The notes beneath the pieces were generated by a model. That model did no database searches. It saw nothing but the letters and a program-made list of their open reading frames with translations, and was not told the DNA's origin. A stretch of DNA of 64,000 bases from a virus (taxonomy: Duplodnaviria; Heunggongvirae; Uroviricota; Caudoviricetes): the IMG/VR virus record IMGVR_UViG_2834277561_000001, positions 58,688-122,687 of that record; one strand, 5' to 3'. A program made the position numbers and the translations under genes. Below, one piece after another: positions 26,001 to 60,800 of the stretch; positions within the stretch are counted from its first letter, which is position 1, and every line of letters begins with the position of its first letter.

Positions 26001-27388
26001 ACAGGATCGCAGCTTTGAAGAACTGTTAAAAGCGGAATTTCACATTGATATGTGGGATTATCCGGAATTTGTCAATAGAATTTGCAACTGATAGAACGGA
26101 AAATTTTGATGAAAGTACAATTTCAACAGGAGGAAAACATAATGAAAGCAAAACAGTTTAAAAAAGTTGTAGAAGAAAATAGAAAATATATTGATATAGA
26201 AACAAGATATAAAACAGTACAAATGATTTTCTTTGTTAGAGATTTGATGATGGAATCTGGAAACAAAGAATGTGCAAAGTTAATTGACAATCTAGCGGAT
26301 GAAATTGATAAAATTGATACTCACGAGATCATGAAAGAACATATATTTTAAAACAATTTGAAATTCATATTTCAGGAGGTAACAGAATGAAAACATATTG
26401 TATTACATATCATGAGACATACGCGGAAAATTACGAAGTTGAAGCAAATTCGCCAGATGAAGCAGAACAGATTCTGCGCGAACGGATTGCAAATGGAAAA
26501 GAATCCGCGCCGGAACAATGCCAGGATAGCTGGTGTGATATTGCAGAATTATAATGAGTTTGACCGCTGATAGGCATATGGAAATACTTTCTGTATGCCG
26601 ATTGAACGATTAAACAGAACACTATATAATAAGAAAGAAATTGATAACATGAAAGATGTAAGAATGAAAATCACAACGGGAACGTGATAGACATAAGAAA
26701 GAAAGTATTTTTTATGGAATGTGAGAATAGGAGGTACATATGTATTCATTAGTTAGATCGGAAAGGACAATATTTGATAAAAACAGAATAATGTTAAGTA
26801 AATCAATTGCTTATATATATTATGATGATATAGAACATTTGTTTATTGATTACGATAATAAAACATGGGGAAAATTTGATGAGTACGAATGGAAACGAAA
26901 AGGAGCAATCGTACCTGGCATTACATCTCATAATGAAGATAATATAAATTCTTATGACATACAGTATGAAATTTTGGAAACGTTAGAAACATATTATTAT
27001 GGAAATTTATGGGATAGAATAGAAAAGTTAAAATAAATAGTGTAAATAAGAAAGGAATATATGACAATGGAAAATAATGTAAAGAAAACAAGAAAATATT
27101 ATCGAGTAAAAGTTAAACGTATTCCACCGCATTATCCAATTAATACAAGTTATTATTATGAAGAGGACGTATGGGCATATTCTAAGGATGGTGCGATCAA
27201 TAAAATCAATCGTACTCATAAAAATAGTTTTGGAAACCATATCCCGTGTGAAGTTGCTGAAATATCAAAAGAAGATTTTCGTGGTGATAAAATAATTAAA
27301 CATATAACAGAATAACAGAGAATACCAAAAGAAATCCAATTGAAATGTATCTTTCGTAAGAACGGAAACAAATTAAATAAGAACAGAG

Positions 27389-27424
27389 AATAGTCTTATA
27401 GGAAAATCCATAAGGCTATTTTTT
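27389..27424 (+). terminator. Intrinsic terminator
   Basis: AATAGTCTTAT...ATAAGGCTATT stem followed by a T run. Confidence 0.6.
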
Positions 27425-27979
27425 ATGGATGAAATGCACGTTTCGAGACAGGAGGAAAATTATGATGTTAGAACAGAAAGTTATGAATATTTTAGCGCGA
27501 AATAATTTTGGATGTAAAGAAGTAATCCAGAATGATAACGGAAAATATACGGCTAAAATCTACGAACAGATATATTCCATCAAATGGTTTTGGACAATCT
27601 CATTTGATGGAACAACGGGAGATTTTATCGAAAGTGTTTACGAAATAGCATGTAATTTCAATATTGATGATGCAGTGGAAAAATATAGAAACAAATTTTC
27701 TAGTATAACAGACACAGTTCATTATATGGAAGATAGAAGAGATAATTTATTTGAGTTATATAACAGACTGGACGGTTGGGAACCTGACGGAAAATATTTA
27801 GCAATCAAGAAATTAAGAGAACTCACAGAACGTTATTTGTCACTGGAAAATGATCTGATGGATGCCGGAGAAGCAACGGACGTTATGAACGAAATCGAGG
27901 ATGCAGCGGTTGATCTTCTGATTGATGGGACTGATATGACAGCGGATGAATTATTTAAAATTTTAGATAGCCGGAGGAA

Positions 27980-28207
27980 ATGAGAATGGAAATTTTAAGT
28001 GTAAAAAAAGCAAAAGAATTAACAATAGATACAGAAGTAAAGCCTTGTCCTTTTTGTGGTGAAACAGAGGACATTGTAGTTGAAGAATATAAAACCATTG
28101 TCGGGAATCGGTGGAGAATAGTGTGCTTTGGTTGTATGGCAGGAATAGACAGAGGATACGATCAAACACCGCATGGATTAATTGACGTATGGAACAGGAG
28201 AAAATAA
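27980..28207 (+). CDS. Lar-family restriction alleviation-like zinc-ribbon protein
   Basis: VKPCPFCGE...WRIVCFGC...WNRR pattern. Confidence 0.7.
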   Translation: MRMEILSVKKAKELTIDTEVKPCPFCGETEDIVVEEYKTIVGNRWRIVCFGCMAGIDRGYDQTPHGLIDVWNRRK

Positions 28208-30635
28208 AAATGGAAAAATTAAAAGAAAGAATCATTAACCAGGCGAAAAAATCATTAGAAGATGCTGTAATTTGCGCTAAACAAATTACTACAGAAAATA
28301 ATGTACATAATAAAACTTGTATTCTTAATACAGAATATCATTTGTCACAGTTTTTTGCTTATATGGAAATTTTGTGGGAATTAGATATAGATAAATATGT
28401 TGAAATTGGAAGTGAAACGAATAAGGATAGAACCGCTGCGGCGTTGGCGATTGATAAACTTTATGAAATCGGAGGAAATGAGAATGGAAAATATTAATAT
28501 GAAAAATTCAGAAGAAACTATGATCGAATGCAATTTCACAGAATCGGAAATTAAGAAGAATGGATGGATATAAATGCTTAATGCAACTAATTGGAAAGAA
28601 TTAAAGAAACAATTGAAACAGATACAAGGTAAGGCTGTATTTAAGTTGGAACGTGTTAATAGTATGAATGACGGAACGTTCTATAGAGTATTACACCAGG
28701 TAAAGCCACATGAATTAGTTTTCTTTGATGGAAAGCAACAAGTGTATTTACAAGTAAATACAGAAACAGAAAATAAAATTGTATACTTTGAAAGTGGTTT
28801 TAGAATTGGAAACTGCACTTATATATTAGATAGAATTATGGAGGTATAACCATGAACGCTGTCCAAAAAGAATGGGAGAAAATGAGAATTGCATATCAAA
28901 ATAGGTACGCAAAAATGTGTAAAAAGATAAAGAAAAATGAATTTAATACCGATAATCACGGAGCTTTACTTGAAATGAGCTATGTTTTGATTGCTGTGTT
29001 TGGATTGACGGATAAACAGGTACAAGAAATTGAAAGAAATGACGGATTTACAAATGCAGATGTAAAACGATAAAATGATGATTTTTAATTAGAAAATTGA
29101 ATTGGAGAATAATAAAAATGAAAAAATCAAATATTAGAGTATTTGGGGAAGCAAGTATTGCACATGTAGAAAAGAGAGGTTTGTTTTCGTACGTAGTTGT
29201 AAGAGACTGTGATAAAAAAGTAATCGCAAAGTCATTTTCATTTAGGAAATATATGAATGATACTATTCGTACAATGTATACAGGAGAATATTATGCTACG
29301 GGTGATTTCATATTGGTTGCTGATACTGTAAATGGTAGTAAAGAAATCTACAGATGGAAATGAATCATAAGTTGTATCGGAGGTAGAGAATGATGTTTGA
29401 TATAAATAAAGTATGGATTTACAGAATTGAAGATTGCGCATGTGGTGCTGTAATTGCAGACAATAAAGAATTAGCAAAGGAAAAAGTAATTAATGCATAT
29501 TTGCAGCATTACACAGAATTTGATCCGGATTATGCGGTTATTCAGATTGAAAATGCATTAGAGAATGGAAATATTTTTACTGATTGTCCAGATGTGATAG
29601 AAGTTGATGAATGTTAATGAAATAAAAGTTTCAGAGAATCGGAGAAAATAATATGAAAGAATTTAAGAAATTTGTGATAGATAAATGCAAAGAATCTGGT
29701 GTTTTAGATACGGAAAATATTTATTTTTCTCAGACAAGAGATATATACTATGCTGACTATAAACCGAATTATCCAGAAAAAACAAATGGTGACTTTACAA
29801 TTTCTCAGGAAATTATATCTGGTAAAAGAAAAATGTATGGAAATTTTAATGCTTTGATTCCAACAATAATAGAATTGTAGTAATGAAACAAGAGTTTCTT
29901 TGGAAGAATGGAGGAAATACAATGAAGCGTGATTTAGTAGATGAATTATATAAAACGGCGTATAAACGATATAGAGAAAAATATCCAAATAAAGATTTTG
30001 CATCTATTCCAAATTTTTTAGATTCACTTTGGTTTAGCATTGAAGGTGAACTTAATAGAAATGGATATGATGCTGCAAAGAAATATGTCGAAAAAGCAGA
30101 GTTAATTGAATTAAAGTAAATGAATCGGCGATTTTTTATGAAAACAGGAAAAAGATTGGAGTGATTTTATATGTTTAAATTATCATCTATAAAAGTCGGA
30201 ATGAAATATCAGGATGTAAGAAATGAAATTATTAAATCAAATAATTTAGTTATGAGTTGTTTGCCAGCTTTTTGTAATAGTAACTATGATGTAGCAAAAA
30301 ATCTTGATACAAAAGAGAAAGTCTATGTATTAAGGGATTATGATACAGGAATTATTACAGATGTTACAACAGATTATTATAAAGCGGTCAATGCTGAAAC
30401 AGCACAGAGAAATATATCTGAAATTCTTTATAATAATGGATATTAAAATCTAATGAAACGTAGATTTCTTAGGAAAGTAGTGAAGAGAAATAGTAAAAAA
30501 CATACATGTGACAAGACAAAGAATGAAATTATTGAGATTATTGCATAAGAGTTTAAAACGGTAAACAGAGATTATGATGATGCAATACAAAATTTTCAGA
30601 ATAAATGCGTGTTTTATTAGAAGAAAGGAAATAAT

Positions 30636-30920
30636 ATGTTAGGATATAAGATTTATTTTAATGGAGATAAATTTGTAGCAGATAATACTGCAACAGAAGT
30701 TCAGACGATGCCATGCGATTCAACTGTTTCATGGATGGCTAATAAGACATATGCAGATAATGTCGTAGAAAAGCATAATGCAAATGATTTAAAGGATGTT
30801 AAAAAATGTAAGGAATGCGGAAAATATTTTTGGCAAACAAATGATGAAAGAATCTGGTTTACTGATAGGAATATGAAAGCACCTTGCAGATGTTATTCTT
30901 GCAGAAAAAAGAAACACTGA
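30636..30920 (+). CDS. Protein with C-terminal zinc-ribbon domain
   Basis: CKECGKYF..ERIWF...PCRCYSCRKK. Confidence 0.65.
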   Translation: MLGYKIYFNGDKFVADNTATEVQTMPCDSTVSWMANKTYADNVVEKHNANDLKDVKKCKECGKYFWQTNDERIWFTDRNMKAPCRCYSCRKKKH

Positions 30921-32276
30921 AATTCGCATTTACTAGGAAAAGCGAGAGAATAACACCATTAAACAATGCAATAGAAATTATATTGAAATGGCACTTTTAA
31001 AAAAGAGAACGGAAAGTATCAGAAGGAAAATAATATGAAAGTATTTTATTTAGCACAAGAGAATTTCGGATGTGTTGTCTATGCAGATAATGAAAACGAT
31101 GCATTTGAAAAAATGAAATGTCAAAGAAAAGAATTATTAGAAATTTTAGGATTGCCATTAGATATTACACGATGGGGAATTGAAGAATTTACACCGGACT
31201 TATATGATGGTGTCTTATGTTTTTATTAAAATGAAACGGAAATTTCAAAGTCGGAATTGGAGGAAAATAAAATGGATAAAAATATACATTGGTATGAATT
31301 ATGTTTCTTTGGCGATGAGGATACAGAAAGCGAAAAATATGATAGTAATAAAGCTTGTAGCTATGTGATTAAAACAGAAATCCCACCAGTAATCGATGAT
31401 ATGATTGCATTGAAAATTTTGTTTGGGGAGCCAAGAGAACAATGGGAGAGAGAACTTATTGAAAATTGCACTTGTGTTATGGAAATATCAGAAGATGATG
31501 CTCAATCCTTTGATGTGGAAGGACTTACAAAGAGAGTTGAAAGTGAATACGGAGTATATTATACAAGGCAATGAAAAGCACATTTCAAGAAATGTGCTTG
31601 TTATTATAAATTAGAGTATCAAAGATGGAGGAAATAAAATGTATAGTGGAACAGTTATAAAACCATATTGGGGTTTTGAAGTTGGAGAAAGAATATATGT
31701 TAAAGAATTAGATTATACCTTTAAATGGTGTGCAAATATTTACAGAACAAAAGAAAAGAGTTCATTTGTTGTAACTGTATGGGACATTGATATGCTTAAA
31801 GAGTGTGTAAATTTCGATTAATAAATTGAAATGAGTAAAAATTAAAATTTGATACATACGAAAATGAAATAGCGATTTCAATAATTAGAGGTATACACTA
31901 TGAGAAAGAATATTACAGATGAATTTACAGGGCAGCAGAAAAGAATCTGACAGTATTCTATAATGATGACACAGGAGAATTTGAAGTTTGGTACAATAAA
32001 GAATATTCAGAAAACTTCTACGATAATCCAGAAGAGAATGCAATAGAAAAGTTCAGGAATTTATTAATGATTGGTAGGTAAATTATGAAGAAAGAAAAAG
32101 CATTAGAAAAGTTACGAAAAGCAAAAGTAGAAGCTGTATCAAATTCTACAGTAATTGAAGTAGGTAGATTGGAATTAAACGAAGCAATAAAAGCATTGAG
32201 AATTATCATTGCTCTACAGAATATATTAAATGAAGATTAAGATTGAAATGGAAATTTCAAAAGGAGTGAATATATC

Positions 32277-33461
32277 ATGAAATTTACAATGGATGTAAAA
32301 GAATTGAAGAAATTAATGAATAAAGGGATTACATCAATCAATAAAAAGTGTGCAATTCCGGCACTCACAAGATTATATTTCCAGGTAGAAGAAAATGGAA
32401 TTGTTAAAATGTTTGGAACAAACATGGATCATTATGTAGAAGTACGATCTAGCAGCGCATATGATACATTCCCTGGAGTTATCGGAATCGATGTTGATGA
32501 TGTTAAGATCATTTCTAAAATGAATGGAATTATTTCACTTGAAAGTATTATACCAGAAAACAAGAATGGAATTGGAAAAGTCGATATTAAATGCGGAAAG
32601 AAAACCGTTTCAATTATTGGATATCAGAAAGATAATGATATTATTCCGGATATGAGTAATACAGGAACAAAAATCATGTCCGTAAAGGAAAACTGGTTAC
32701 TTGAAACAATCGGAAATCTTTCCTTGTATACGCGTTATTCTAGCAGTATTAAAATGATGCAGGTATTCAACTTTAATACGAAAAAGAACCGTATTGAAGC
32801 ACTGGACGGTTATAGAATCGGAATGAGATCACTTGAAAATCAGACAATACATGAGACAACGGAAAATCCATTTGAAACGGTTAAAATTCATAATATGTGT
32901 GTTCCTATATTTAAAAAATTAATGGATAAGAAATCAGAGAAAAATGTGATTATTTATCAGAGTAAAAAGAATATAAGACTTGATGGAAACGATTTTACAT
33001 ACATTATTCGTAGAGTAGATGGGGCATATTATAAAGTAGATCAGATGCTTAAAGTTCCAGAAGAATTTAGGTTTATCCCGGATAGAGAAAACATTCTTGA
33101 TGCGATGAAATACGATGCTGAATTAGCCAAAATGGATTGTGTCAACAAAAAGCCTGTTGTATTCCATAGTGCAAACGGGAAACTTTACTCATATATTCAT
33201 ACGGAAAAATATGAAGCATTCGATGAGTTGGAAACTTATGAAAATAATATGTCAGATAACTTATATGTTGGATTTGATTCAAGACATCTTGCAGATGTGT
33301 TTAGTATTGTGGATTCCGATAAACCTGTTTGTTTTGGACGCAATGCAAAGTCCCCATTGATTATTAATGGAAATGAATATAGTTTTTTGATACTTCCAGT
33401 AAATATTGGAACAGATTATAAAAAGGAATTTTCAGAAAGAAATAAGGAGGAAATTGCTTAA
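32277..33461 (+). CDS. DNA polymerase III beta (sliding clamp)-like protein
   Basis: 394 aa; IPALTRLYF, GTNMD, ALDGYRI, RVDGAY, VGFDSRHL and C-terminal FLILPV correspond to DnaN motifs. Confidence 0.8.
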   Translation: MKFTMDVKELKKLMNKGITSINKKCAIPALTRLYFQVEENGIVKMFGTNMDHYVEVRSSSAYDTFPGVIGIDVDDVKIISKMNGIISLESIIPENKNGIGKVDIKCGKKTVSIIGYQKDNDIIPDMSNTGTKIMSVKENWLLETIGNLSLYTRYSSSIKMMQVFNFNTKKNRIEALDGYRIGMRSLENQTIHETTENPFETVKIHNMCVPIFKKLMDKKSEKNVIIYQSKKNIRLDGNDFTYIIRRVDGAYYKVDQMLKVPEEFRFIPDRENILDAMKYDAELAKMDCVNKKPVVFHSANGKLYSYIHTEKYEAFDELETYENNMSDNLYVGFDSRHLADVFSIVDSDKPVCFGRNAKSPLIINGNEYSFLILPVNIGTDYKKEFSERNKEEIA

Positions 33462-34336
33462 TATGATAGAAGAAAGAAACGGTTTTGAATGCATTGATAA
33501 CGATTGCATGCAATGCAGCAAGTCGTTGGGAAATCGAAAATATCTCTTTATCCAGGCAGTTTGGTTAGATGGAGAAAATGATTATTGTGTTGTTTCGGAT
33601 ATCGAAGATTTAACAACAATGTCTTTAGAAGATATTGAGAGTGCAATCACTGGATATTACGATGATATCGAAGCAATGGAAAAATCTTATGATCTTCCGT
33701 TGGGACAACTTGATTCTGTTATTGCAGAATGTAATTTTGAAGGACGTCCGTTTTGCGATTGGGAACATCAAAGCGAAGTTGTTACATGGAACAGGGCGGA
33801 AGAAATTATTCAGAAGTTTATTGATACTGATGGAGAAATGTTTTTAAGTAGATAAAAACCGCATTTCAAAAGGAGAAATAGATATGGGAAAGAAAAATAA
33901 ACCGCGCTAGAAAGATTTGAATATATATGAACGGCTTGCTAGAAGATATAAACAGCGGGGTGGTTCTGATGAATGGGTTGAATGGCTGCGCCAGAAGACA
34001 ATAGAAAAAAATTGAAAGGACTAAATAAATAGAATGGAATATATTATTGAGAATCTTACAAAAAGAGAAATTGATATTATGGAATCGAGTGATATTGAAT
34101 GGTGTCCTGATGACATATCAAGTAATAATACAGATATTGTAGTTTTCACCCAAAAGGATCGAGATAGAGCATTATATTTAATGGGACGTAAATAAAAAGA
34201 ATAAGAAAGAGAATATTGTAATAGAAAGTTATTTATAAGGAGGAAAATATTATGGCATATTTTGTAGGACAGTGTATTCTTTATGGAATCGTAGGATTTG
34301 TGATTTACGCATTACTTTCATAACGGAAAACTGAAT

Positions 34337-34364
34337 ATAGCAATCGATCTGGTTGCTATTTTTT
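34337..34364 (+). terminator. Intrinsic terminator
   Basis: ATAGCAATC-gatct-GGTTGCTAT followed by a T run. Confidence 0.6.
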
Positions 34365-34399
34365 ATTGAACGAAACAACAATTTCAAGGAGAAAAGCAA

Positions 34400-34603
34400 A
34401 TGGAAAACAATTACATAACAATTTATTCACGGAAATTGGCGGGATATTTATTGCTTAAAGGTTTCAAAATGGAAGATTTTCAGAAAAGCCATAAAGACAG
34501 TGAGAGAACTATTTTTTATTTTTACAATTCGCCGGAATTGTCACGGGCAAAGATGGAATTCGACAGGTTAAAGAATTATAAAGGAAGTATTGTTAATATA
34601 TGA
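34400..34603 (+). CDS. DUF5659-like small protein
   Basis: IYSRKLAGYLLLKGF...TIFYFYNSPEL pattern. Confidence 0.6.
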   Translation: MENNYITIYSRKLAGYLLLKGFKMEDFQKSHKDSERTIFYFYNSPELSRAKMEFDRLKNYKGSIVNI

Positions 34604-35497
34604 GAAGTTCGCATTAACGGAGGTTCAATTATGTATTTGGAAATCGAGATACGGTTTATTGTAAGGAAAATCATTTAGTAGGAAGAATTTTCAAATTATT
34701 AGATGATAACGAGGCATACGTCAAATTTTCGATTTGGGAATCTATTGTAATAAACGTTAGGATTTCGATTAAAGATTTAGTTAAAATAGATAAAACTGAA
34801 ATAAACAAACATATACGACAGTACAATTCTAAACGAAAGAAAATAAGATGATCTTATAAAGGAGGATTTTTTTGTATGTGGCAGTCAGTAAGATATGGAT
34901 TACCGGAAAACGGAGTGGTAGTAGAAACAAAAGTTGACGATGGGAATGGTTGTAGATTAGTTCAGAAGTTAAAAAGGAAGAATGATTTATGGTTTCTTCC
35001 AGATGACAGTATGTATGTTTACTATACACCTACACACTGGAGGTATTAATTTATGGATGAGAATAATGAAATCGAAGAGATGAAATTATATATTGAACAG
35101 CTCGAGGCGGAAAATTCGAGATTAAAAAATTCTATTAGATCATTACGAAATAATAATAAATCTATGTTGCAAGGGCTGAATAAGTTACAAAGTTATGTTT
35201 CAAGACTAAAAAGAGGTGAATTACAATACGACAATTATTGGGTATCTTTATTGATACAGGATGATTATAACAGCCAACCGAGGTTAATAGAAATGCAAGA
35301 ATGTTCTGTATTATTAAAAAATGCTATGAAAGTTATTGATACTGGAAGAAAAAATTACAGAGTTTTAGCTGCTTGGATAGATTGTTTTGATAAAAAGAAT
35401 ACAAAAACAACAGTATTCCACGAGTGTTTTATAGATATTTGTGGAAACATCACGAAATGAAAGGATTATTTCATAAGTTTACAGGAGGAATTATTAT

Positions 35498-36145
35498 ATG
35501 AAAGAACACATTAATACGGAAGGATGTATTACTATTACAAAAGATGAAGCTATGAAAATGATTAATGATTTTAAAGGTGATTCAATTACGGTAAAAATTA
35601 TTCAAAATCAAAAAGAAACCAATAAGATTCCAGTGGGAGATGTAGAAATAGGGCAGACAATATGTAATGGAAAATATGTTGTAGTCGATAGATATACACA
35701 TGGAGATACCTGTATTGTAAGAAAAGGAACCATTACTCAGGATATTCGATTTGGTGAAACGAATAAATGGGGTGAATCAAATTTACGAAAGTATTTAAAC
35801 ACAGAGTATTTAAAAGAAATCATGGATGAATTTGGTGAAATTGAATTACATACGGTTGATATGTTGTCGATGGACGGAGATGACTCTTATGGAAAATGTA
35901 AAGATCTAGTTTCTGCAATGACTTTTGATCGTTGGCGGAAATACCATAAATACATCGGTAATGCGGATTGCATGGAATGGTTATCTACACCAAACCAAAC
36001 GGAAAAATCAAATGATACGCGCTATGTGCGGGTTGTCGACTCCGGTGGTTGCGTGAGCGGCGGCGGTTGCTACTGGTGCGGCTACGGTGTGCGTCCGTTT
36101 TTTATCTTGAAATCATCAATCTTAGTATCTGTAGATAAAGCATGA
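35498..36145 (+). CDS. DGR target protein 2 (remote); DUF6273/C-type-lectin-like C-terminus
   Basis: WGESNLRKYLN, SMDG..YGK, WLSTPNQT, and a C-terminal variable repeat ending GVRPFFILK. Confidence 0.88.
   Translation: MKEHINTEGCITITKDEAMKMINDFKGDSITVKIIQNQKETNKIPVGDVEIGQTICNGKYVVVDRYTHGDTCIVRKGTITQDIRFGETNKWGESNLRKYLNTEYLKEIMDEFGEIELHTVDMLSMDGDDSYGKCKDLVSAMTFDRWRKYHKYIGNADCMEWLSTPNQTEKSNDTRYVRVVDSGGCVSGGGCYWCGYGVRPFFILKSSILVSVDKA
36017..36099 (+). repeat. DGR variable repeat VR2
   Basis: 83-nt match to TR with 16 differences at TR adenines and one T->G difference. Confidence 0.93.
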
Positions 36146-37049
36146 AAGAATCGTTTCAAAGGAGTTTTGATATGAAGATATATGTATTGAAAGAATATAA
36201 CACGGATCGAATAGTCTGCATTTCGGAAAATATTCTACTAATTAAGAAACAATTATGCAATAAAGAATATTTTAGCACGGAATATTCAGATTATCCCATT
36301 ATGTCTGTATGGGATAATGGAATTCAAATTGAAAAATTTGAAGGAATGGATGTGCTTAGAAAAGTTGCAGAAGTTATAAACAATAACTAATGAAAGTCGG
36401 ATTTCGAGGTAAAAGGTATGACAAATTATAAAATAAAACATGGTGATATGGAACTGTGGTTGATTCTTGCAGCATTGGGGAAAGGGGAACAAAGAAAAAA
36501 TCCTGATGATTTTACAAGAAATCCGGATGGAAGCTTACCTGTAAAATTTGAAGTTGGAGGTGTTGAACTGGATTTTTCAAATGTTGCAAAAAGAATAGAA
36601 GATTCTATAGATTCGCTTGTGATGAACAAGGCACAACAATTATTAAACACTAAGTATTCGCGCCTAATTAATGAAATTGAGGATATTCAGAATCGGCTTG
36701 AAGATCAAAAAGCGACTTTATTTAAGTAGTGTGGGTATAATAAATATACTTAACGAAATTTCGGAGGTGATTATTGAAAAACAAAAAGTAGTTAAGTTGT
36801 TAAGAATGGAGGAATCATATATGCTTAAAATTGGTGATACAGTAAAGGTGATTAGAATTACAAATACTGGTGAATTAATTCCAATTGGTACGATATGTAC
36901 CGTTTTGGAAGTGAGGAAAGAATTAGACGGAAAATATTATTATGGAATTGGTGATAATAGATTTTATAGTAAGAGTGTAAACGGTTACTATTTAGAAAAT
37001 GAGTTAGAAAAAGGACATTTAGAATGGATAAAAGAATAGGAGAACAAAC

Positions 37050-38186
37050 ATGAATGGATTAGCGGTAAAAGATATAGAATTTAATGGAGCAACACTGAGA
37101 GCTGCACAGGATGCCGTCGGAAAAATTTGGGTTGGAGTTCGTTGGATATGTCAGGGAATGGGATTTGACGAAAATCGAATTGATAATGAACGTAAAAAAA
37201 TGCAAAAAGATATTGTGGTTTCTAAGGGAGTGAAATTTTACTCCCTTGGACAAGACCGTGCAAAATCAGATGTTCTTTGTATTGATCTTGATTATCTTCC
37301 TCTTTGGCTTGCAAAAATCTCCATTACTCCGACAATGCAGAAGGAAAATCCGGATCTTGTACAGAAACTTATTACATACCAGCTTAAAGCTAAAGATGTT
37401 TTAGCAGAAGCATTTCTTCCGAAGAAAGAAGAAATTGTTCCGGCACAATCGAATATGATTCAGCTGCAATTTCCTAACCTTCCGGATTACAGCGGAAATT
37501 TTCAGGAACTTAATGAAAAGATTAATAAGTTGTATTCCGACATGGGAAAACTTGCAAATCTTTTGATAGAGATGAAAGAAGGAAGCAAAATTTCTGTTGA
37601 TATTCCGAATTCAGTTAATCATGGAAATCTTCTGGAAGTGCTTGAACATTCCGCGATAACTGAATGGAAAAAGAAAATCTATTCCATGATTGACAGGCTT
37701 ATTGATGCCGGAAAATGCAAAGAACGTTCTGAATGTCTTCAATATATCTACAAGTATATGAATAAGAACTATGGTATTGTCTGGGATCAGGAAATGAAAG
37801 AATATGCTATTCAGAACGGAAAGAAACCATCTACAATAGATCTTACATATAATAATGAAACTTATCGTTCAATTTTCGAGTCAATTCTGGTTGATCTTGT
37901 GGAAAATAATACATCACAGGATGAAGAAATGGTATGTATGACGGACAAAATCATTACTCCACTGATTGCGAAATACAATGATAATAGTAATGCCGGATGT
38001 GCTACATATCGGCTCGTGTATGCCAGAATGGATAAGATTAAACCTATTTGTTGGAGTAATCGCGAGGCACGGTATATCAATAAACATGAAAAGAAAACCG
38101 CGACAAAGAAAAATATTATCAATGACAGCAAATCACTGATGAAAATTTTCAGGGCAGCAGTTAAGCAGATGTTGGAGGAAGAGTAA
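37050..38186 (+). CDS. Phage antirepressor, P22 Ant N-terminal-like domain
   Basis: IWVGVRWICQGMG...LCIDLDYLPLWLAKIS...YQLKAKDVLAEAF. Confidence 0.8.
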   Translation: MNGLAVKDIEFNGATLRAAQDAVGKIWVGVRWICQGMGFDENRIDNERKKMQKDIVVSKGVKFYSLGQDRAKSDVLCIDLDYLPLWLAKISITPTMQKENPDLVQKLITYQLKAKDVLAEAFLPKKEEIVPAQSNMIQLQFPNLPDYSGNFQELNEKINKLYSDMGKLANLLIEMKEGSKISVDIPNSVNHGNLLEVLEHSAITEWKKKIYSMIDRLIDAGKCKERSECLQYIYKYMNKNYGIVWDQEMKEYAIQNGKKPSTIDLTYNNETYRSIFESILVDLVENNTSQDEEMVCMTDKIITPLIAKYNDNSNAGCATYRLVYARMDKIKPICWSNREARYINKHEKKTATKKNIINDSKSLMKIFRAAVKQMLEEE

Positions 38187-48062: not shown

Positions 48063-48131
48063 ATAATTACCTCCTACTGTTATACTATACTATAATTTTT
48101 ATAAAAAAGCAATTATACCTTAATACAACAC

Positions 48132-48160: not shown

Positions 48161-48208
48161 ATGAAATATCAAAGGTAATACATAGAAAAATGAAAGGAGG
48201 AAGTACAT

Positions 48209-48595
48209 ATGGATCTTCACAGATATGATATAGTCGAGGCTGAAATTAAAATGACAACACCGTCTGGATCAGTACAGAAGAAAAGACGTCCATATGTAAT
48301 CGTAGGCAATGAGCAAGGAACCAAGACGGCTCCTACGGTTATTGCAATGCCTTTGACTCATATTATAAAAAGAACGAACCTTCCGGTTCACGGATGTATT
48401 AAGGCGGATGGTGATACTGGACTGGCTTATTATTCAATGGTGCTTGGTGAACAGCCTTATACGCTGGACAAACAATATGAAGTCAAAAGAAAGCTTGGTT
48501 CAGTAGTCGATATGAAACAGAAAAATCTAATTAATAAAATCTGTTGGAATACTATGTTTTATGGAGAAAATATAAACTGGGAGGCAATATTATGA
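48209..48595 (+). CDS. PemK/MazF-family endoribonuclease-like protein
   Basis: RYDIVEA..GSVQKKRRPYVIVGNEQG...PTVIAMPLT..S.VLGEQPYTLDK. Confidence 0.82.
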   Translation: MDLHRYDIVEAEIKMTTPSGSVQKKRRPYVIVGNEQGTKTAPTVIAMPLTHIIKRTNLPVHGCIKADGDTGLAYYSMVLGEQPYTLDKQYEVKRKLGSVVDMKQKNLINKICWNTMFYGENINWEAIL

Positions 48596-48907
48596 TAGGT
48601 TATATTACGGTACCGAAATCAGTGGCAAAAGAAATGATAGATAATTATCCAGGAGATAGAGTTCCTGTCCTTTCTTATAATATAGAAACTCATATTCATA
48701 AGCCGACTGAAAGAAAAAGCAAACGGAGAACAAAAGAAATCATAGATATTGCGAAAGAAGTAGGATTTCAAAAGAATGATATTTTTGATGTTCTTGGATG
48801 TATGACATGGGAAAATGAAATGAGAAGTATTTTGTTACCTAAATTGCTAGAATAATGCCACTTATCCCGTTTTATCGGATTCTGAGAAGAGTATTATTTA
48901 AGAAAAA

Positions 48908-49982: not shown

Positions 49983-52139
49983 GTGATTACGATGGATTGC
50001 AAAGAAAAACAAGAGAAAATTGAATATTATGCAGGAAACAATATGAGACATCTTAAAAAGCTTTGCGATCCAATCATCGCAAAGAAGTTTTTACCGGAAA
50101 TGTATAGAGATGATCTTTATAGTGACGCGCAAAAAGTATTGATGGAGAGTGTTGAATCATATAGAGATGATTCTGGTGTTGCTTTTAAAGATTATCTCAA
50201 AGGAAATATAAAAAATTCTTTTTGGGAATGGTCGCGTAATTCAATGGCACAAAAACGATGTAATGTCTTGCGTGATAAAAATGGAAAACCTGTAAAAGTA
50301 AAGGACGAAAATGGAAAGTTAAAAAAGATTATTATTCCAGATGTTAGATTAGATGCACCTGTAAATGAAGAAGATTCTCATAGCACAATAGGGGAATTAA
50401 CACCTTCCGGATTTGATATCAATAATGTAATTTCAGAACTTATAAAAGATGAAAATGTAGAATTATTTCTTGAATCATTATCTGATATTCAGAGAAGACT
50501 TCTTGAACTGAGAATGTCTGGAATGAATACTGAGTCAGTTAAAAGAGAATTGCATATTACAGAACATCAATATCAGGATAATATGACTGCGATTAGAGAA
50601 AATGAAATGATTTCTTTATTCAATAAAAAAAGAAAACGTATAGAAAATAAAATGGAGTACAAGGATATGGAAGAGAAAATAGTTTTTATGGATGATGATT
50701 GCATAATGGATTTGGATACAACTGATTCATATAGAATGGACAAGTATTCTCTTGAATCTCTGATTGCGGATAAACAGGAGGGAGAGTTGGATTGTGCGTA
50801 TGTTTCGCAACGAGTTCCATTTGCATGGACGGAAGAGCAGATCAATAAATACTTTACAAGAGTTCTCAATAATCAGCCTATTACAGAGATGGTTATATGT
50901 GAAATGGTGATTCCTGGTGCTGGTGGAGGAAAAATTTCATATCTCATTGATGGATTGCAGCGATTATCATATGCCGAGGCTTTTAAAGAAAACAGAATTC
51001 CAATTAAAGCAAAAGGGGCTGAATTTACAAAAGTTTATTATAAGAAATTTGAGTACGATGAAAATGGTAACAAAGTTCTCGATGAATACAGAAGAGCAAA
51101 ATATTCAATAGAAGTATTTAATCTGATTGGTAAATATTATAAAGATCTTCCGGAATTTTTGCAAAAGCGTTTCGATAAATTCAATGTAAATGTGACTAGA
51201 TATTTTGATTGTACTCCTGAGATGATTGATTATCATTTGCGTAACTATAACAACCATGTTGCTATGAGTAAAAATCAGTATGGCATCACGTGCATTTCAA
51301 ATGATGCCGCAACAAAAATTAAGAAATTGTCTCAGAAACATGCGTTTTTTAAAGACAATATCAAATGCACGAATAAGAGTCGAAAAACAGGAGTGCTTGA
51401 AGAAGTAGTCGTAAGATCAATGATGTGTCTATATTTTATGGATGATTGGAAAAAAGATGCCACAGACGCATATAAATTCATTGATGAAAACGCAACAGAC
51501 GAGCAGTTTTCTTATTTACATAAGTTACTTGATGATATGCACGAGGTTTGTGGAGAAGAAGAAAAAGCACTTCTTACAACAACTAATACATATACATGGG
51601 TAAAAGTTTTTGATAATTTTTCAAAGCTTGGAATTGAGAATGGCAGATTTATAGAATTTATGAAAGCATTTGGAACGACATTACATAGTAAAGAAATTAA
51701 CGGTCGTTCATATGATGAGGTAAGTACTAGAAATACAAAAGATAAGATAACTGTCAATAATAAAGTAGAAGTAATTACAGATCTTATGCGTGAATATTTT
51801 GGAGAATCTATCATTGTAGACGAATCTATTACTGAAGAAGAACTTTCTGATTTTGAGTTTGTAAAAGAAAATGTTTCTGATGATGTAAATGAGGAAGATT
51901 TTGAGTTCTACAAAGACATGGTAGATGATTCTGTTAAATGTGATACTCCATTATACGAGAAATGTACTCCGGCATTAATCGCATTAATGGCAATTGCGTG
52001 TCAAGAAGAAAAGGATACTGAATTTGAATCCTGGGCTGGTAAATATGCAAAGGACAATATCACATTCAGTCCGAGTCAGAAAGTCAACTTCATGTATATG
52101 AAGAATGATTTCGAAAAATACTGTCAGTCGGCAGTGTGA
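49983..52139 (+). CDS. Sigma70-like (regions 2-4) domain fused to a DUF262 domain
   Basis: DDLYSDAQKVLMESVESYRDDSGVAFKDY, RLDAPV and LSDIQRRLLELR..; then SQRVPFAWT, LIDGLQRLS and RNYNN. Confidence 0.75.
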   Translation: MITMDCKEKQEKIEYYAGNNMRHLKKLCDPIIAKKFLPEMYRDDLYSDAQKVLMESVESYRDDSGVAFKDYLKGNIKNSFWEWSRNSMAQKRCNVLRDKNGKPVKVKDENGKLKKIIIPDVRLDAPVNEEDSHSTIGELTPSGFDINNVISELIKDENVELFLESLSDIQRRLLELRMSGMNTESVKRELHITEHQYQDNMTAIRENEMISLFNKKRKRIENKMEYKDMEEKIVFMDDDCIMDLDTTDSYRMDKYSLESLIADKQEGELDCAYVSQRVPFAWTEEQINKYFTRVLNNQPITEMVICEMVIPGAGGGKISYLIDGLQRLSYAEAFKENRIPIKAKGAEFTKVYYKKFEYDENGNKVLDEYRRAKYSIEVFNLIGKYYKDLPEFLQKRFDKFNVNVTRYFDCTPEMIDYHLRNYNNHVAMSKNQYGITCISNDAATKIKKLSQKHAFFKDNIKCTNKSRKTGVLEEVVVRSMMCLYFMDDWKKDATDAYKFIDENATDEQFSYLHKLLDDMHEVCGEEEKALLTTTNTYTWVKVFDNFSKLGIENGRFIEFMKAFGTTLHSKEINGRSYDEVSTRNTKDKITVNNKVEVITDLMREYFGESIIVDESITEEELSDFEFVKENVSDDVNEEDFEFYKDMVDDSVKCDTPLYEKCTPALIALMAIACQEEKDTEFESWAGKYAKDNITFSPSQKVNFMYMKNDFEKYCQSAV

Positions 52140-52614: not shown

Positions 52615-52759
52615 TATGGGAATCACATGTAAGCAGTTTGGAAAAGTAAGAGGAATGATGCAACGAGTTGAGAATGAGAAGACAAAGAAACACAATGAAG
52701 CTGTGAAGAAAAAGTCAAAAGACAAGAAATGATGAAACCGTAGTTTCATTGGGATTTTA

Positions 52760-54688: not shown

Positions 54689-54736
54689 ATGGTGTTTAAA
54701 AATAACGATGAAACTCACATTTCAGAGGGGATTTTT

Positions 54737-55401
54737 ATGGAAGCATGGATTTTACAAGGTTTTGCAATAATTGGCTTTGCTATAACAATTGGACTTATGT
54801 TTATTCTGTTCTATATCGTTATGTGTAAAGTCAATATTTTGTTTAACAAGTATTATAAATTACAAAAGATAAAGAGAGAAAGCAAAAATAGGTTTCGACA
54901 ACCACCTGTAGCAAAATGTTACTGTCTCTATTGCAAATATGCAGAATATTTCGGAGATGACAGATGTGGTAAATGTAGCCTATGGGGAAATGATATTGTA
55001 ATCAAGGATAACGGCTTTTGTTATAGAGCTGATCCTAAAAAATAAAGATGAAATGATTGTTTCACGGTGTGATTAAAAGAAAGATAAAAGGAATAGTAAT
55101 GAATAAGAATATATCAGTAAATGTAAAAGCATGTCAGATGTTGGATGTAGAAATAACCCCAGATGAATTACTAAAAGGAATTATTAATGTTTGTCAACTA
55201 GATTATTTATTTTCTTCAACGAAAGATGTTTATTGGAGACTTGAAAAATGCGGAAAAACAGAGGTTCTAAATCAATATGTTAATTTTTCATTAAATTCAC
55301 AGCATCCTGAATTTGAAGTGTTTCGTACTATTTCTGATAAAGAAATCGTTGCGATTTATAAATGTATAAACAAACTTAAAGAATTTATTAATGTAAAATA
55401 A
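54737..55401 (+). CDS. Two hypothetical ORFs (54737-55045, membrane anchor plus Cys cluster; ~55099-55401)
   Basis: Hydrophobic N-terminus and CYCLYC..C..C motif in the first; both co-oriented. Confidence 0.6.
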
Positions 55402-56666: not shown

Positions 56667-56777
56667 CTGGGGTGAAAAATGCAGAAAAGTACGTATTTAT
56701 ATACTGAAATCAGAGTCTCACCATCAAAAGAGCAAATATCCTTTCTTACCACAAGATAAAAATAAAGGAATACAAAA

Positions 56778-57821
56778 ATGGAAGATTATAGTTTTGAGTC
56801 TGTTTCTAATTTTGAAGCACTATATAAAGCATATCGTAAATCCAGAAAAGGATCGGGACATAAAAAGAGTAAATATAAATTTGCTCAAACTGCTTTGTAT
56901 GGTGTTTCAATGCTTAAATATCAATTGAATTCTAAGAAATATTTCATTGACAGATATAACAAATTTAAAGTTTATGAGCCGAAAGAAAGAGAAATTGCTG
57001 CCGGAAGTTTTAAGGATAAAATTGTGCAACATTCATTGTGTGATAACTACCTTTTACCGTATTTGTCTCATCATTTTATAGAGAATAATTTTGCCGGACA
57101 AATTGGCAAAGGAACTCATTTCGGATTAAAAGTTTTGGAACAGCATATGCTAAGTGCTTATTCAGAATATGGGATGAACTGTTGGATTGTAAAGTGTGAT
57201 GTTAGAAAATATTTCTATAATATTGATCACGACATTCTTAAGGATATTATAGAATTTCATTTTTCAGATTCTGATATTCTCTGGTTATGTAAAAAGTATA
57301 TAGATAGTGCAGAAAGTCCAGGACTTCCTTTAGGTAATCAAGTTAGCCAGGTGTTTGCGTTATTATATTTGTCGGGGTTGGATCAATTCATAACAGGGGA
57401 ATTAGGCGCTAAGTATTATGGAAGATACATGGACGATTTTTATATTATTGTACGGTCAAAAACACACGCGAAAGACTGCTTAGAATACATTAATACATTT
57501 GTTCAATCATTAAATATTGAGTTAAATGAAAAGAGTCAGATTATTCCGTTCAAAAATGGTATTCGATTTTGTGGTTTTCATACTTATATAACCAGTAGTG
57601 GTATTCCAATTCGAAAATTAACTAATGAGAAAAAGAGAAAAGGAAAGAAGAAATATATAAAAATGGCAAAGCTGGTTAATGAAGGAAAAATTAGCAAAAA
57701 GGATTTTGAAACTTCGTATTCTTCATTTAGAAATCATTTGTCATTTGGGAATTGTGTGAAATTTAGTTATAAATTGGACAAAGAAATATCTGAAGTGTTG
57801 GATAAGGAAGGAACAGAATGA
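56778..57821 (+). CDS. DGR reverse transcriptase
   Basis: EPKEREI, FKDKIVQH, GKGTH, KCDVRKYFYNIDH, GLPLGNQVSQ and YGRYMDDF motifs. Confidence 0.95.
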   Translation: MEDYSFESVSNFEALYKAYRKSRKGSGHKKSKYKFAQTALYGVSMLKYQLNSKKYFIDRYNKFKVYEPKEREIAAGSFKDKIVQHSLCDNYLLPYLSHHFIENNFAGQIGKGTHFGLKVLEQHMLSAYSEYGMNCWIVKCDVRKYFYNIDHDILKDIIEFHFSDSDILWLCKKYIDSAESPGLPLGNQVSQVFALLYLSGLDQFITGELGAKYYGRYMDDFYIIVRSKTHAKDCLEYINTFVQSLNIELNEKSQIIPFKNGIRFCGFHTYITSSGIPIRKLTNEKKRKGKKKYIKMAKLVNEGKISKKDFETSYSSFRNHLSFGNCVKFSYKLDKEISEVLDKEGTE

Positions 57822-60800
57822 CAATTAGAGAATTATATGAATGGGCGAAGCAACAAGGTATTGAAGACTATGATATAGAAATCCAGTACAGAGATGGCGG
57901 AGGATATTATGATGGTACAGATGATGCATATTTTTACGATATAGAAACAAAACATGATAAGAAGATAATAATAATTTAGAAAGAAGATAAAATATGAGGT
58001 TATTTATTACAAAGAAAAAATTAATTAAAGAAATGGCAAAAGAATTGGCATATTTAGAGATTAACGCAGACTGGTGGTATTACACGACTAAGGTTGAAGA
58101 GAAACAGCAGATGTCAAGTCATAATCTCGATGGTGTTACAGAGCTTAGATGTATTTGCGATGCTCTTGGAATTTTAAAGGAAGTATATGATGAGGCTTAT
58201 AAAATCTATGATTTTAGAAACAGCGGAAGTGACGATTTTAAACCAAACGTTCCATTAATCAGAAAATTGCATGATGAATTTTGTGAACCAATCGCAAAGA
58301 AGCGTCCATTTATGTAAAAAGAGGAATGCAATAAGACATGAAACAGATACCCAGGCATATGCTATTGCTGCGGAAAGTACGTATATAATATAAACATGTC
58401 ACCCGAAGAGAAAGCTATTAAAGATATTGAGAAGTTAATTCTGGATTCAGATTACATAGAAATAACAGACGAAATTAAGGGTTCATTAAAACTTACGGTC
58501 AAGAAATTGAAAGAGGTAAGAGAAAATGAGTAAATCAGTATTAGTGTTGGATACACCAAAATATTGTGCTTCATGTGCTTTACGCAGCGGAATACTTCAC
58601 CCATTCTGTAGAGCGAATAGAAGAGATATTACAGATTTGAGCATTAGACCAGATTGGTGTCCATTGAAGCCATTGCCGAAATATAGATCAATGGAAAAGC
58701 CGGGAGAATACGAATATGGTGAGATGCATGGTTGGAATAGGTGTATTGATGAGATTACAGGAAAATCATGAAAAAGCTAAGTTGTGAACACATGATTTCG
58801 TATAGGAGGTGAAATATGAGTTTTACTATAACATTCCCAGTAGATATTGGAACATTTGTAATTACAGATACAAGTGTTGATTTAAATAATCCGAATAATT
58901 TAAAAGGAAACTTAGGAAGTATATCATGTTATCAATGTGTTGATGACAAAGAAGATGATTTTATTGTTATGGTATCCGGATATAAAGATTCTTGGTGTGG
59001 TGAATATTTGCTTAGTAAATTAAAAATTGCTACAGACAAACAAGTTAAAGAATACGAAATGGTAATGGGGATAAAGCAAATGGATATTGATGAGATTACA
59101 GGAGAAAGTTCTGATGATTGATTTAAGAAATACATGTATCTTGGTTAAGACAAAAGAAGAAAACGAAATGATTCTCAAAGAAGCTGAGAAGCAGGGATTT
59201 CATTGGTACTATGAAGACCATTGTAAGCCATTACAAGAACAGCATTTCCCAGACATTTTAAAATTTTGCGAAGATAAAGATATCATTCATAGAGCATTTA
59301 TTAACTCAAATTACGCTTTCCACGAAGCATCAGAACTTCTCGGAATAAAAGAAATGACAGTAAGAGAATTTGCTGAGCGGATTGCAGATGCAGGCAATTG
59401 TTACGAACGTGAATGTTCGGAATGTGTATTTAGCAAAGTGAATACTAAGTGCAGCATCAATTTGTGTAATATATACAACTGGAAAGGCAACATTGATGAA
59501 CTCTTTGAAATTGTGAAATCAGGAAAAGCGACAGTTCTTACACCGGAAGAGAAAGCAGTTGAAGATATTGAAAAATTTATTGAGAATCCAGACCGCGCAG
59601 CGTTAAATGATGAATTTGTAGATGCGTTGAAGCTGGCGATTGAAAAATTAAAAGAGGTGAAGTAGATGATAAAAATTAGCAAAATTGCCTTTGAAGCATT
59701 AAGAGATACGGATGGAAATGTTTCAAAAAAAACCAGCGGAATGGTGGAGAAGAAATAAATTGGCATGTATTTGGTGCATATTGTGTATGCTGGCAGAGAT
59801 TCCGATAGTAATATTAAGATTTGTACTTATGACAATTTGTTTTATTCCGTTAGAAGATATATCTTTTTAAGAGGTGGAGTAGATGGAGAGATTGACACTT
59901 GACGACGCTATTAAATACACCAAAGATGTAGCGAGAAAGAACAGAATAAACAAAGAGAAAAATACCATCATTATTCCTAACAGTTTTATCAGTAGTAATG
60001 ATTGTGCAGATAAATATGGACAAGTTGCTAGATGGTTGGAAAGACTAAAAGACTACGATGATTTAGAAGAAAAAGGATTACTGTTTGAACTACCGTGTAA
60101 AGTCGGAGATTTAGTTTTTATCATCAGTGGAGAAAATATTTGTGGAAGAAAAGTAAAATCAATAAAAATTTTAAGTACAGAAATCGAATTTTCAACATCC
60201 GACTTCACATTTCGAAAAGAATCTTTTGGCGAAACAGTATTTTTAACAAGAGCAGAAGCAACGAAAAAGTTGTATGAGATGGAGGAGCAAAATGGATAAT
60301 GTGTATATAGTAACAAGACAGAAAAATAATGTATTAGTTTCGATTATGCGAAATAAATTAGATGGCACGTATTCTTTTGTAAATTTAACAAAAGGACATA
60401 TATGCACTTGTAAATTTAATACCATTGAAGATGCGGTAAAAGATATGCAGATTAAAAAAGAAAATGGTGAAGTTATAAGTTATTTTAAAGTAGGTGAATA
60501 AATAGTGGATCGAAGAAATAGAAAGTATTATTTGGTGAGACTGCCATATTGTCATAATGCATGTGTGAAAAAACTGAAAGAAATTAAGACAGTAAAAATT
60601 TCAAATCCTTATGATTTTGATAAAGATAGGAAGTATGGATACGCAAACTGTTTAATTGGATTTTCTAATAATGTAGAAAATTCTATTCTTACAATTTTAA
60701 ATTCAAAATGGGAGTATGGCTATAAAGCAAAATATAATGAAATTACTAAAGAAATGATTGGACATTAAAGTTAAAACGGCAGTTTCATGGAAGGAATAAA

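Follow-up and report, generated by a model that had tools for sequence, protein, structure and literature searches.

Junction palindromes with address-like spacers in the early gene block of large Lachnospiraceae prophages

Why does a short palindrome return at one gene junction after another of a temperate phage, its arms fixed and its centre different every time? The question is raised by the element TGAAA-N6-TTTCA in a 64,000-nucleotide stretch of a Caudoviricetes virus (IMG/VR record IMGVR_UViG_2834277561_000001, positions 58,688 to 122,687), which is called the window here and was analysed at its full length. Its parent record, G000, is a 201,430-bp contig classed as a provirus by IMG/VR. 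An initial annotation, made from the letters alone, had noticed the element and offered three explanations: a repressor network of the stoperator or SPBRE kind, cassette recombination sites for one of three tyrosine-recombinase-fold proteins, or RNA hairpins. The reading we favour, and to which we give about an even chance, is that the palindromes are protein-bound junction linkers in the early block of 100–215 kb Lachnospiraceae prophages, and that short-homology recombination swaps cassettes at them. The main new result is that the junction-specific spacers appear, from comparison of the sequences, to act as addresses. They stand in the same order from phage to phage, with unrelated genes between them.

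The excess of the palindrome is large. The window holds 16 perfect copies, whereas 100 dinucleotide-preserving shuffles average 0.57 and never exceed 4. When up to one mismatch is allowed, the count is 47, with 13.9 expected. In G000 there are 36 perfect copies with a spacer of 6 nt and 0–3 at every other spacer length from 0 to 14. The inverted order, TTTCA-N6-TGAAA, does not occur once in the whole 201,430-bp contig. Intergenic sites with the core GAAA-N6-TTTC number 46 in G000. The initial annotation had counted 15 perfect and 14 one-mismatch copies by eye, had put the chance level below one perfect copy, and had described a spacing that is always 6 bp around a spacer that never repeats. 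The count was about right, with one further perfect copy at 26110. The chance level and the constant spacing are borne out by the shuffles and by the other spacer lengths, and no spacer is duplicated within any of 11 genomes, although this uniqueness is not significant by itself. With the scan run against shuffled controls, the excess is confirmed as strong and real; it extends past the window, and it is widespread and phage-specific.

The position of the copies is as constrained as their geometry. G000 is laid out as a minus-strand block at 1–81 kb and a plus-strand block of about 250 mostly small genes at 82–201 kb. The second of these is the compartment of interest:

Window 23684–64000 (genome 82.3–201.4 kb, to the contig end), plus strand: block of small early-type genes by our own gene calls; the sole compartment with intergenic copies.

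All 16 perfect copies in the window lie at gene junctions, and each follows a stop codon and precedes a Shine–Dalgarno (SD) sequence, as had been described. The stop codon ends −2 to +8 nt ahead of the 14-mer core, and the SD follows 0–13 nt after the core end. In five G000 copies, the TGA of the motif is itself the stop codon. Outside the 16-mer, information is confined to an A at −1 and the SD. The minus-strand block of G000 has four perfect copies, each of them inside a gene. Across eight related phages, the core is present at 17.2% of junctions in the plus block versus 3.5% in the minus block. A copy reported at 2144, right after the integrase stop, does exist with one mismatch, but it sits in the minus-strand block and may be there by chance. 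The cassette-like bracketing pointed out earlier is found as described, both for the gene at 35498–36145 (sites 35458 and 36143) and for the TnpB locus (sites 52733 and 54709). Promoter-like matches are no commoner than in shuffles (98 vs 110.7), and a terminator scan also stayed at chance level.

What, then, is kept at these junctions? Each of seven fully fetched relatives has 2–8 intergenic spacers identical to spacers of G000, where about 0.3 would be expected by chance. Among copies inside genes, no spacer is common to G000 and these seven relatives. The surroundings of the shared sites are not shared with them: the 200-nt flanks show background similarity only, the genes beside the G000 sites belong to families absent from the other genomes compared, and the DNA of at least 80% identity common to G000 and any of the seven amounts to less than 850 bp. 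The shared spacers follow one order: TGGATA, TGCGTG, TTCGCA, CTAAGA, TTGTAA, GAACTG, TAGCAA, CAAGAG, TGAGGA, CGATGA, CGTAGA, CGGAAA, AGCACA, ACCGCA, TAATAG, CCAAGT, TCTAAG, TTTAAC, GAATGA, TGACGA, AATTGC, GATTGT and CAGACA. In genome pairs with at least four shared spacers, 122 ordered spacer pairs are concordant and 9 discordant. G000 itself is locally rearranged; the clamp-like gene and TTCGCA stand elsewhere in the series, and TGCGTG lies far downstream.

The extent of identity at single junctions is short. At the TTCGCA junction the 14-mer and 17 nt of the ribosome-binding site (RBS) are identical, and the downstream protein is just 42% identical. At the CAAGAG junction, about 35 nt are nearly identical between phages. 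Where two junctions have one homologous gene in common, the distance between their spacers is bimodal: 35 are identical, 9 differ by one or two changes and 19 by three or more. Flank-anchored alignments give change at 7% in the spacer, 10–13% in the flanks and 3% in the arms, differences that are not significant (n=31). Possible reasons for the persistence of the spacers are a cassette turnover much faster than point mutation, selection, or an enzyme that needs a match. The initial annotation had held that variable spacers argue against cassette sites. That objection is reversed, since the spacers are variable within a genome and conserved by position between genomes.

If the palindromes mark the borders of cassettes, breakpoints between relatives should be found at them, and they are. 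Mosaic breakpoints were counted as the ends of high-scoring segment pairs (HSPs) of at least 85% identity among relatives. Left ends fall at −5 to +4 of the 14-mer start in 27 of 207 cases, and right ends at +10 to +14 of the 14-mer in 18 of 214. An HSP end is present at 42% of motif junctions versus 20% of other junctions (Fisher p=1e-10); with the comparison restricted to junction spacers of at least 30 nt, the values are 44% and 22%. The neighbour of a shared gene is also shared across 8.5–9.5% of motif junctions versus 29% of others, and in motif-junction pairs with one homologous neighbour, both neighbours are homologous in 2 of 65. Between G000 and ten relatives, a copy is found within 6 nt of 9 of the 131 HSP ends, where 1.6 are expected (p=4e-5). 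One cassette shared with the relative G019 at 88% identity is bounded exactly by the copies at 29618 and 29884.

Closer relatives were read from contigs of four public DNA runs (X2, X3 and X5 are named below), compared with positions 26001–46000 of the window. At 95–100% identity, these relatives differ by cassette indels and replacements. Of the 13 credible joints, eight come within 6 nt of a copy at one end or both (11 of 26 ends). The X3 joint 31581>32254, a difference of 672 nt, has both ends inside copies with different spacers, and the seven letters shared there, ATTTCAA, are the right arm. Runs X2 and X5 lack the 57-aa gene that follows the copy at 43663; the break lies 1–2 nt past the palindrome. 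The copies in the window are as follows, in window coordinates and without strand. "Address" denotes a spacer shared between genomes.

26110–26125: perfect, spacer GTACAA; 16 nt ahead of an ATG; similarity to the run X5 contig begins at 26107.
26359–26374: perfect, spacer TTCATA; abuts GGAGG; X3 diverges past the first base (joint 26359>26680).
27341–27356: one mismatch (A16>G); intergenic.
27430–27445: one mismatch (A16>G); 16 nt ahead of an ATG.
29618–29633: perfect, spacer TAAAAG; right after a TAA; left border of the cassette shared with G019, the 88% HSP beginning 1 nt before.
29884–29899: one mismatch, address CAAGAG; same 14-mer in G005, G006, G007, G009 and G019; the G019 HSP ends 5 nt past.
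30454–30469: one mismatch, address CGTAGA; shared with G006 and G007; X3 has 1025 nt in place of 318 nt, and homology is back 1 nt before this copy.
30984–30999: one mismatch (C15>T); intergenic.
31232–31247: perfect, address CGGAAA; also in G001, G005, G006, G007 and several loci.
31572–31587: perfect, address AGCACA; also in G006 and G007; its TGA stops 31257–31574; left arm of a hairpin at 31576–31599.
31865–31880: perfect, spacer TAGCGA; one base off the relatives' address TAGCAA.
32244–32259: perfect, spacer TGGAAA; precedes the 394-aa clamp-like gene; holds the right end of the X3 joint 31581>32254.
33853–33868: one mismatch (G2>A), address ACCGCA; perfect in G006.
34371–34386: one mismatch (T1>C); 13 nt ahead of an ATG.
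35458–35473: perfect, spacer GGATTA; its TGA stops 35053–35460.
36143–36158: perfect, spacer GAATCG; its TGA stops 35498–36145; X3 joint 36164>36389 begins 6 nt past.
36391–36406: one mismatch (A16>G); X3 homology is back 2 nt before.
38604–38619: one mismatch, address TAATAG; shared with G007 and G010; X3 joint 38614>40403 has its left end inside.
38886–38901: one mismatch (T1>A), address CCAAGT; the most widely shared address, in 7 of 11 genomes.
39239–39254: perfect, address TTTAAC; same 14-mer in relatives in at least seven left and at least five right contexts.
41848–41863: one mismatch (G2>A), address TGACGA.
42613–42628: perfect, spacer TTTGAT; abuts GGAG; left end of X3 joint 42622>43659 lies inside.
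43663–43678: perfect, address AATTGC; also in G005, G007, G008, G010 and G015; an HSP to G019 ends inside; X3 homology is back 4 nt before.
44428–44443: perfect, address GATTGT; also in G006 and G015; an HSP to G015 begins exactly at the first base.
44943–44958: one mismatch (T1>C); directly ahead of an ATG; X3 is without the next, 79-aa gene, with the break 3 nt past.
52733–52748: perfect, spacer CCGTAG; right after a stop; left bracket of the repeat-array/TnpB unit.
54709–54724: perfect, spacer CTCACA; 20 nt after the TnpB stop and 12 nt ahead of an ATG.
55049–55064: perfect, spacer TGATTG; same 14-mer in the otherwise motif-poor G011.
60772–60787: one mismatch (G2>A); 3 nt after a stop; an HSP to G019 ends 5 nt before.

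The breakpoints of gain, loss and replacement thus lie in or at the palindrome in related phages, the check that the initial annotation had proposed. They are not confined to it. Three clean deletions of small genes (27059–27302, 27984–28209 and 28477–28570) use non-motif microhomology at the RBS or start codon, which at 27984>28209 is the 8-nt AATGGAAA. Because precise deletions are also found at such non-motif microhomology, gene loss by short homology is general in the block. The motif is a preferred, not an exclusive, site of cassette joints. As a separate observation, the AGCACA junction element of G000 has a terminator-like hairpin built on it at 31576–31599 (AAGCACATTTC/GAAATGTGCTT and a T-rich tail); the same address in G006 is without this hairpin.

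Is the palindrome read as DNA or as RNA? An RNA stem tolerates U-G and G-U pairs but not C-A or A-C pairs. In the G000 junction copies, T1>C occurs five times and its mirror, A16>G, also five times; G2>A occurs three times and its mirror, C15>T, two to three times. Over eight phages, there are 15 changes of G>A and 12 of the mirror C>T. Beyond G000, the outermost pair is pairable 68 times versus 59.9 expected. It is often unpairable in the relatives and shows no covariation in the eight phages, so that the remaining stem has 4 bp, three of them A-U. No compensatory variants of this stem are seen; its sequence is fixed and the loop length constant. From equal mirror-image changes, a rigid spacing and an outer pair without covariation, we infer that the element is a dyad read in double-stranded DNA by a protein of two-fold symmetry, the half-sites lying roughly one helical turn from each other.

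The RNA alternative supposes a small mRNA hairpin 5′ of each SD that serves processing, stability or translational control, possibly by way of the beta-CASP ribonuclease or the MazF-like nuclease of these phages. The copies do lie only on the coding-strand block, between stop and SD, with tight spacing. The 17-mers that hold the G000 copies have a fold, albeit a weak one, with a mean minimum free energy of −1.9 kcal mol−1. The nucleases are also at hand: the beta-CASP ribonuclease and the MazF-like protein are present in most of eight genomes examined, as is a ClpP protease. The beta-CASP/RMMBL ribonuclease (RNase J-like, 436 aa; window 6796–8106, minus strand) adjoins ClpP (6126–6764, minus strand), and both are found in six of eight relatives. 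A hairpin would nevertheless be expected to spare its pairs, and here pair-breaking changes are as common as their wobble-keeping mirrors, the outer pair often cannot pair and shows no covariation, and neither a change of loop length nor a compensated stem is seen. We therefore disfavour the hairpin option of the initial annotation and consider an RNA-level role very unlikely.

A DNA site implies a reader, and the distribution of the motif suggests where this reader is encoded. With the 394-aa clamp-like protein (32277–33461) as query, we obtained 25 related IMG/VR loci, in which GAAA-N6-TTTC occurs 141 times at N6 versus 12–39 times at other spacings. The whole records of five relatives contain 23–40 core copies versus 5–8 of a reversed-pattern control. 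A second query, the open reading frame (ORF) 11616–12605, which an earlier note described as part of a putative YonO-type RNA polymerase, gave 80 more records. The core is 4–18 fold above the control in 34 of 40 further records (100–215 kb), each at least 65% identical to the query, and is also enriched in 13 other phage records. A distant clade, with 49–56% identity to the query, has no core excess. The 378-aa protein (37050–38186) found no relatives when used as a query.

One record within the closer range stands apart. G011 (IMGVR_UViG_3300006217_000006; loci L079–L085) shows no excess of the motif or of any other palindrome. Its RNA polymerase ORF is 71–75% identical, and its integrase/HU region is syntenic with that of G000. 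It keeps isolated 14-mers such as GAAATGATTGTTTC. G011 may have lost the junction system.

The RNA polymerase ORF match places prophages of this family in Lachnospiraceae genomes, namely Lachnospiraceae bacterium A4 and 28-4, Faecalicatena contorta, Lactonifactor, Acetatifactor, and Roseburia and Eubacterium metagenome-assembled genomes. Lachnospiraceae host chromosomes are unenriched, with 16 motif versus 12 control matches in one and 19 versus 17 in another. The excess in strain A4 is a cluster on scaffold C12 (190–410 kb) around the match to the RNA polymerase gene that marks the prophage (295–302 kb). In the A4 genome (G055), the 16-mer TGAAAGAGTTATTTCA is also repeated, at least 14 times on many contigs, and forms part of the A4 excess. 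It probably belongs to an insertion sequence or other repeat unrelated to the prophage motif. We considered the operator of a host regulon, for example CcpA cre-like half-sites, and rejected it: the host chromosomes are flat, and the spacing is 6, whereas that of cre half-sites is 4.

The phages also differ in how they spell the site. The outer T..A bases, which extend the core to a 16-bp palindrome, are present at 62–88% of sites in G000, G006, G015 and G019 and at 0–23% of sites in five other phages. Taken together, the absence of host sites and these phage dialects suggest that the motif is read by a phage-encoded protein. The dialects do not follow the polymerase. At the RNA polymerase ORF 13585–15429, the motif-bearing G006, G001 and G008 are 23–24% identical, versus 71–79% for G011, G015 and G019; with identities split in this way, neither the motif nor the T..A dialect tracks the polymerase phylogeny.

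How would such a site come to mark the borders of cassettes? In the reading that we favour, a dimeric protein, probably encoded by the phage, would bind both arms and act on the early block. By analogy with stoperators, the likeliest role of the arms would be a distributed transcriptional roadblock or silencer. Short-homology recombination would cross over at the 14-mer, often together with the adjoining RBS (about 30–35 nt), because the 14-mer with or without the RBS is the only sequence common to otherwise unrelated cassettes. Like-addressed junctions of two phages would recombine and swap a cassette with gene order kept. Rarer crossovers between unlike junctions, through the shared arms, would remove, add or relocate cassettes. 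Where a joint can be read in detail, it resembles a short-homology event, with 7–8 nt at unlike sites. The longer identity at like addresses would thus give in-register exchange, and a conserved order, without a special enzyme. Of the recombination-site option in the initial annotation, the part concerning cassette boundaries is supported so far as it could be checked, with breakpoints at the palindrome; no link to the three tyrosine-recombinase-fold proteins was found, none of these being conserved with the motif.

Several points weigh against this reading. The spacers persist between phages that have no other DNA similarity, and passive linkers explain this poorly. Relative to gene junctions generally, breakpoint enrichment is only 1.8–3 fold, and about 1.8 fold in G000. 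The divergent switch region (window 22.3–26.0 kb), where the operators of a master repressor would be expected, has zero copies. Among clade-conserved and early proteins, Pfam and PHROG scans turned up only one DNA-binding candidate, with a helix-turn-helix (HTH). None of the RecT, Erf, YqaJ and RecA families was found in G000, and in a phage without these genes recombination would therefore rest on host or unknown functions. The material has its own bearing on the case: the relatives are metagenomic contigs or records, the close relatives are assembled contigs rather than reads, and genes were called with our own simple caller based on codon usage and SD.

Could the palindromes be regulatory and nothing else? 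They would then be stoperators, or operators of the 434 type, for a phage regulator, and the link to breakpoints would be incidental: both lie at junctions, and an alignment stops at the far edge of any conserved island. An operator network of the stoperator or SPBRE kind, the first option of the initial annotation, is plausible because the site resembles a dyad double-stranded DNA site. Its 4+6+4 layout is like that of the 14-bp operators of phage 434, its many copies occupy one transcription block, and its dialects are phage-specific. Breakpoints are carried by 20% of motif-free junctions too, and the enrichment of about 1.8 fold within the junction zones of G000 is small. A purely regulatory site fails, however, to explain ordered, position-specific spacers in phages that share no other DNA, the three-fold lower neighbour synteny at motif junctions, and the joints that lie inside copies. 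It fits no better with a switch region devoid of copies. We consider this account unlikely.

A further possibility is a reader that also cuts. Such a dedicated system would consist of an enzyme that binds the arms and cuts or exchanges at the 6-bp centre, so that only matching addresses are joined and exchange is ordered. The enzyme would be a recombinase or else a two-fold symmetric nuclease or nickase, and the spacer would be its overlap or sticky end. Inverted arms around a rigid 6-bp spacer are the geometry of a tyrosine-recombinase core site and of an interrupted-palindrome nuclease site. The spacers are unique per genome yet conserved in position and order between genomes, their distances are bimodal, and identity ends sharply at the edges of the 14-mer. 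None of 112 distinct spacers is palindromic, where 2.2 are expected, although this shortage is not significant alone.

The gene content offers this account both help and difficulty. Tyrosine recombinase genes (PF00589) number 2–5 per genome in G000, G001, G005, G006 and G011, which is unusual for a phage, and G000 gave no standard gene for homologous recombination. Tyrosine recombinases nonetheless found no support as the cognate enzyme, because none tracks the motif. PF00589 genes are present in all genomes checked, the motif-free G011 included, which has four, and no single family is universal. A 345-aa recombinase is found in four of eight genomes, and a 192-aa ORF (window 21724–22302; Phage_integrase, E=1e-4) is found only in G000 among eight motif-bearing genomes. 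Arms of 4–5 bp are very short for a recombinase. The single joint between two copies links different spacers, with the crossover in the shared arm. Like deletions use non-motif microhomology, and many breakpoints lie at motif-free junctions. A dedicated enzyme is in our view an improbable explanation, more doubtful than a purely regulatory site.

The search for the reader itself gave leads of unequal value. The families present in all eight genomes are DUF262/GmrSD_N (90–1067), a 715-aa DUF262 protein (49992–52139) with a weak match to sigma region 2, an unannotated 205-aa protein, an HU-like protein, the RNA polymerase ORF and the clamp-like protein. An HU/IHF variant was rejected as the reader. 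G011 has a canonical HU and G000 a divergent HU-like protein, yet many motif-rich relatives have the canonical form. The Cro/C1-type HTH protein (175 aa, 47535–48062, minus strand) is the single DNA-binding candidate of the scans, from a variable family. Its gene is the sole minus-strand gene within the plus block and is followed on the plus strand by a conserved MazF/PemK-like gene (128 aa) and then an 87-aa gene (window 47535–48855 for the three). In most relatives, this trio marks the end of the hypervariable stretch. Three families without annotation go with the T..A dialect; with four versus six genomes compared, they are a lead rather than a result:

Window 44790–44942: dialect-tracking family, 50 aa.
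Window 59883–60299: dialect-tracking family, 138 aa.
Genome 167345–167818: dialect-tracking family, 157 aa.

Outside the window, the ORF at the start of the contig (genome 1–2753; first residues MAKWVYMFTEGNANMRNLLG) seems to resemble pyruvate phosphate dikinase at its N-terminus, and would be host flank or else an auxiliary gene.

Ever since phage evolution was described as modular, it has been debated whether special linkers at gene borders guide mosaicism. In this common family of gut Lachnospiraceae prophages, the linkers are explicit, and their order is kept as nearly all the genes in between turn over. With cultured lysogens such as Lachnospiraceae bacterium A4, the system is testable for the exchange of accessory and anti-defence cassettes between diverged phages. 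It can now be asked which protein reads the motif, and whether exchange is passive, through short homology, or driven by an enzyme. Were a dedicated enzyme at work, the system would be a natural counterpart of cassette exchange with heterospecific sites, and diverged phages would swap single genes in register without homology. For annotators of these genomes, the palindrome is a marker of cassette borders.

How does this system compare with those already known? Promoter early stem-loop elements (PeSLs) of T4-type phages combine a sigma-70 promoter with a terminator stem-loop, and their copies are alike throughout (PMC2839356). Recombination between nearby PeSLs removes the intervening genes and gives mini-circles (PMC2839356). 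Features in common are short elements repeated between genes, a hyperplastic setting of small, non-essential genes, and borders of indels and replacements that fall in the elements. The palindromes differ in being 14–16 bp dyads without a conserved promoter or terminator. Here the arms alone are common to the copies, and the middle is junction-specific with its order kept between phages. PeSLs are functionally the closest known system; membership in their class fails on the missing promoter/terminator module.

The closest regulatory analogues are stoperators and SPBRE, whose defining features, where tested, were not found here. The stoperators of Cluster A mycobacteriophages are asymmetric, oriented with transcription and nearly identical to the repressor operator at the early promoter. 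As here, dozens of motif copies lie in one direction in short intergenic gaps near stops and starts of a temperate phage. Unlike them, the present element is a palindrome with a variable, position-specific centre and has zero copies at the switch region. SPBRE of SPbeta is a 15-bp motif at about ten promoter regions that is bound by the tyrosine-recombinase-fold repressor MrpR (YopR) (PMC10516654). It, too, is a short repeated intergenic element of a large temperate Firmicutes phage, and a putative YonO-type polymerase is encoded here as well. The 40–70 sites of the present phages, by contrast, are at stop/RBS junctions and not at promoters, and their flanks are not conserved. The sole MrpR-like candidate, the 192-aa protein at 21724–22302, is not conserved in motif-bearing relatives.

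Site-specific recombination offers a second set of comparisons. Variants of lox and FRT, dif sites and integron core sites have inverted arms around a spacer of 6–8 bp. Inverted arms around a spacer of fixed length are present here too (36 copies at spacer 6), and the mosaic joints are at like-addressed sites. Spacers that differ within a genome and are identical at equivalent sites elsewhere follow the same logic of cassette exchange. The differences from lox, FRT and dif are arms of 4–5 bp, the lack of a cognate recombinase among those searched, and an inter-copy joint that lies in an arm between unlike spacers. The attC site of integrons is an imperfect palindrome of roughly 57–141 bp that folds as single-stranded DNA and works with IntI and attI. 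The element described here is 16 bp with a stem of 4–5 bp, and has neither a platform at an array end nor attC-like folded sites.

Short conserved sequences at the borders of genes or modules are also known elsewhere. Boundary or linker sequences of lambdoid phages coincide with mosaic joints, and the Start-Associated Sequences of Cluster K mycobacteriophages immediately precede many start codons. Neither has dyad symmetry with an arm common to all copies and a centre that depends on position, and we know of no description of a conserved address order for either. Literature searches with the motif as a string found nothing, and no account was found of a junction element whose arms are shared by all copies and whose centres are specific to position and ordered across phages. 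The palindromes of these Lachnospiraceae prophages are a gene-shuffling scaffold akin to PeSLs, boundary sequences and stoperators, yet partly of a new kind.

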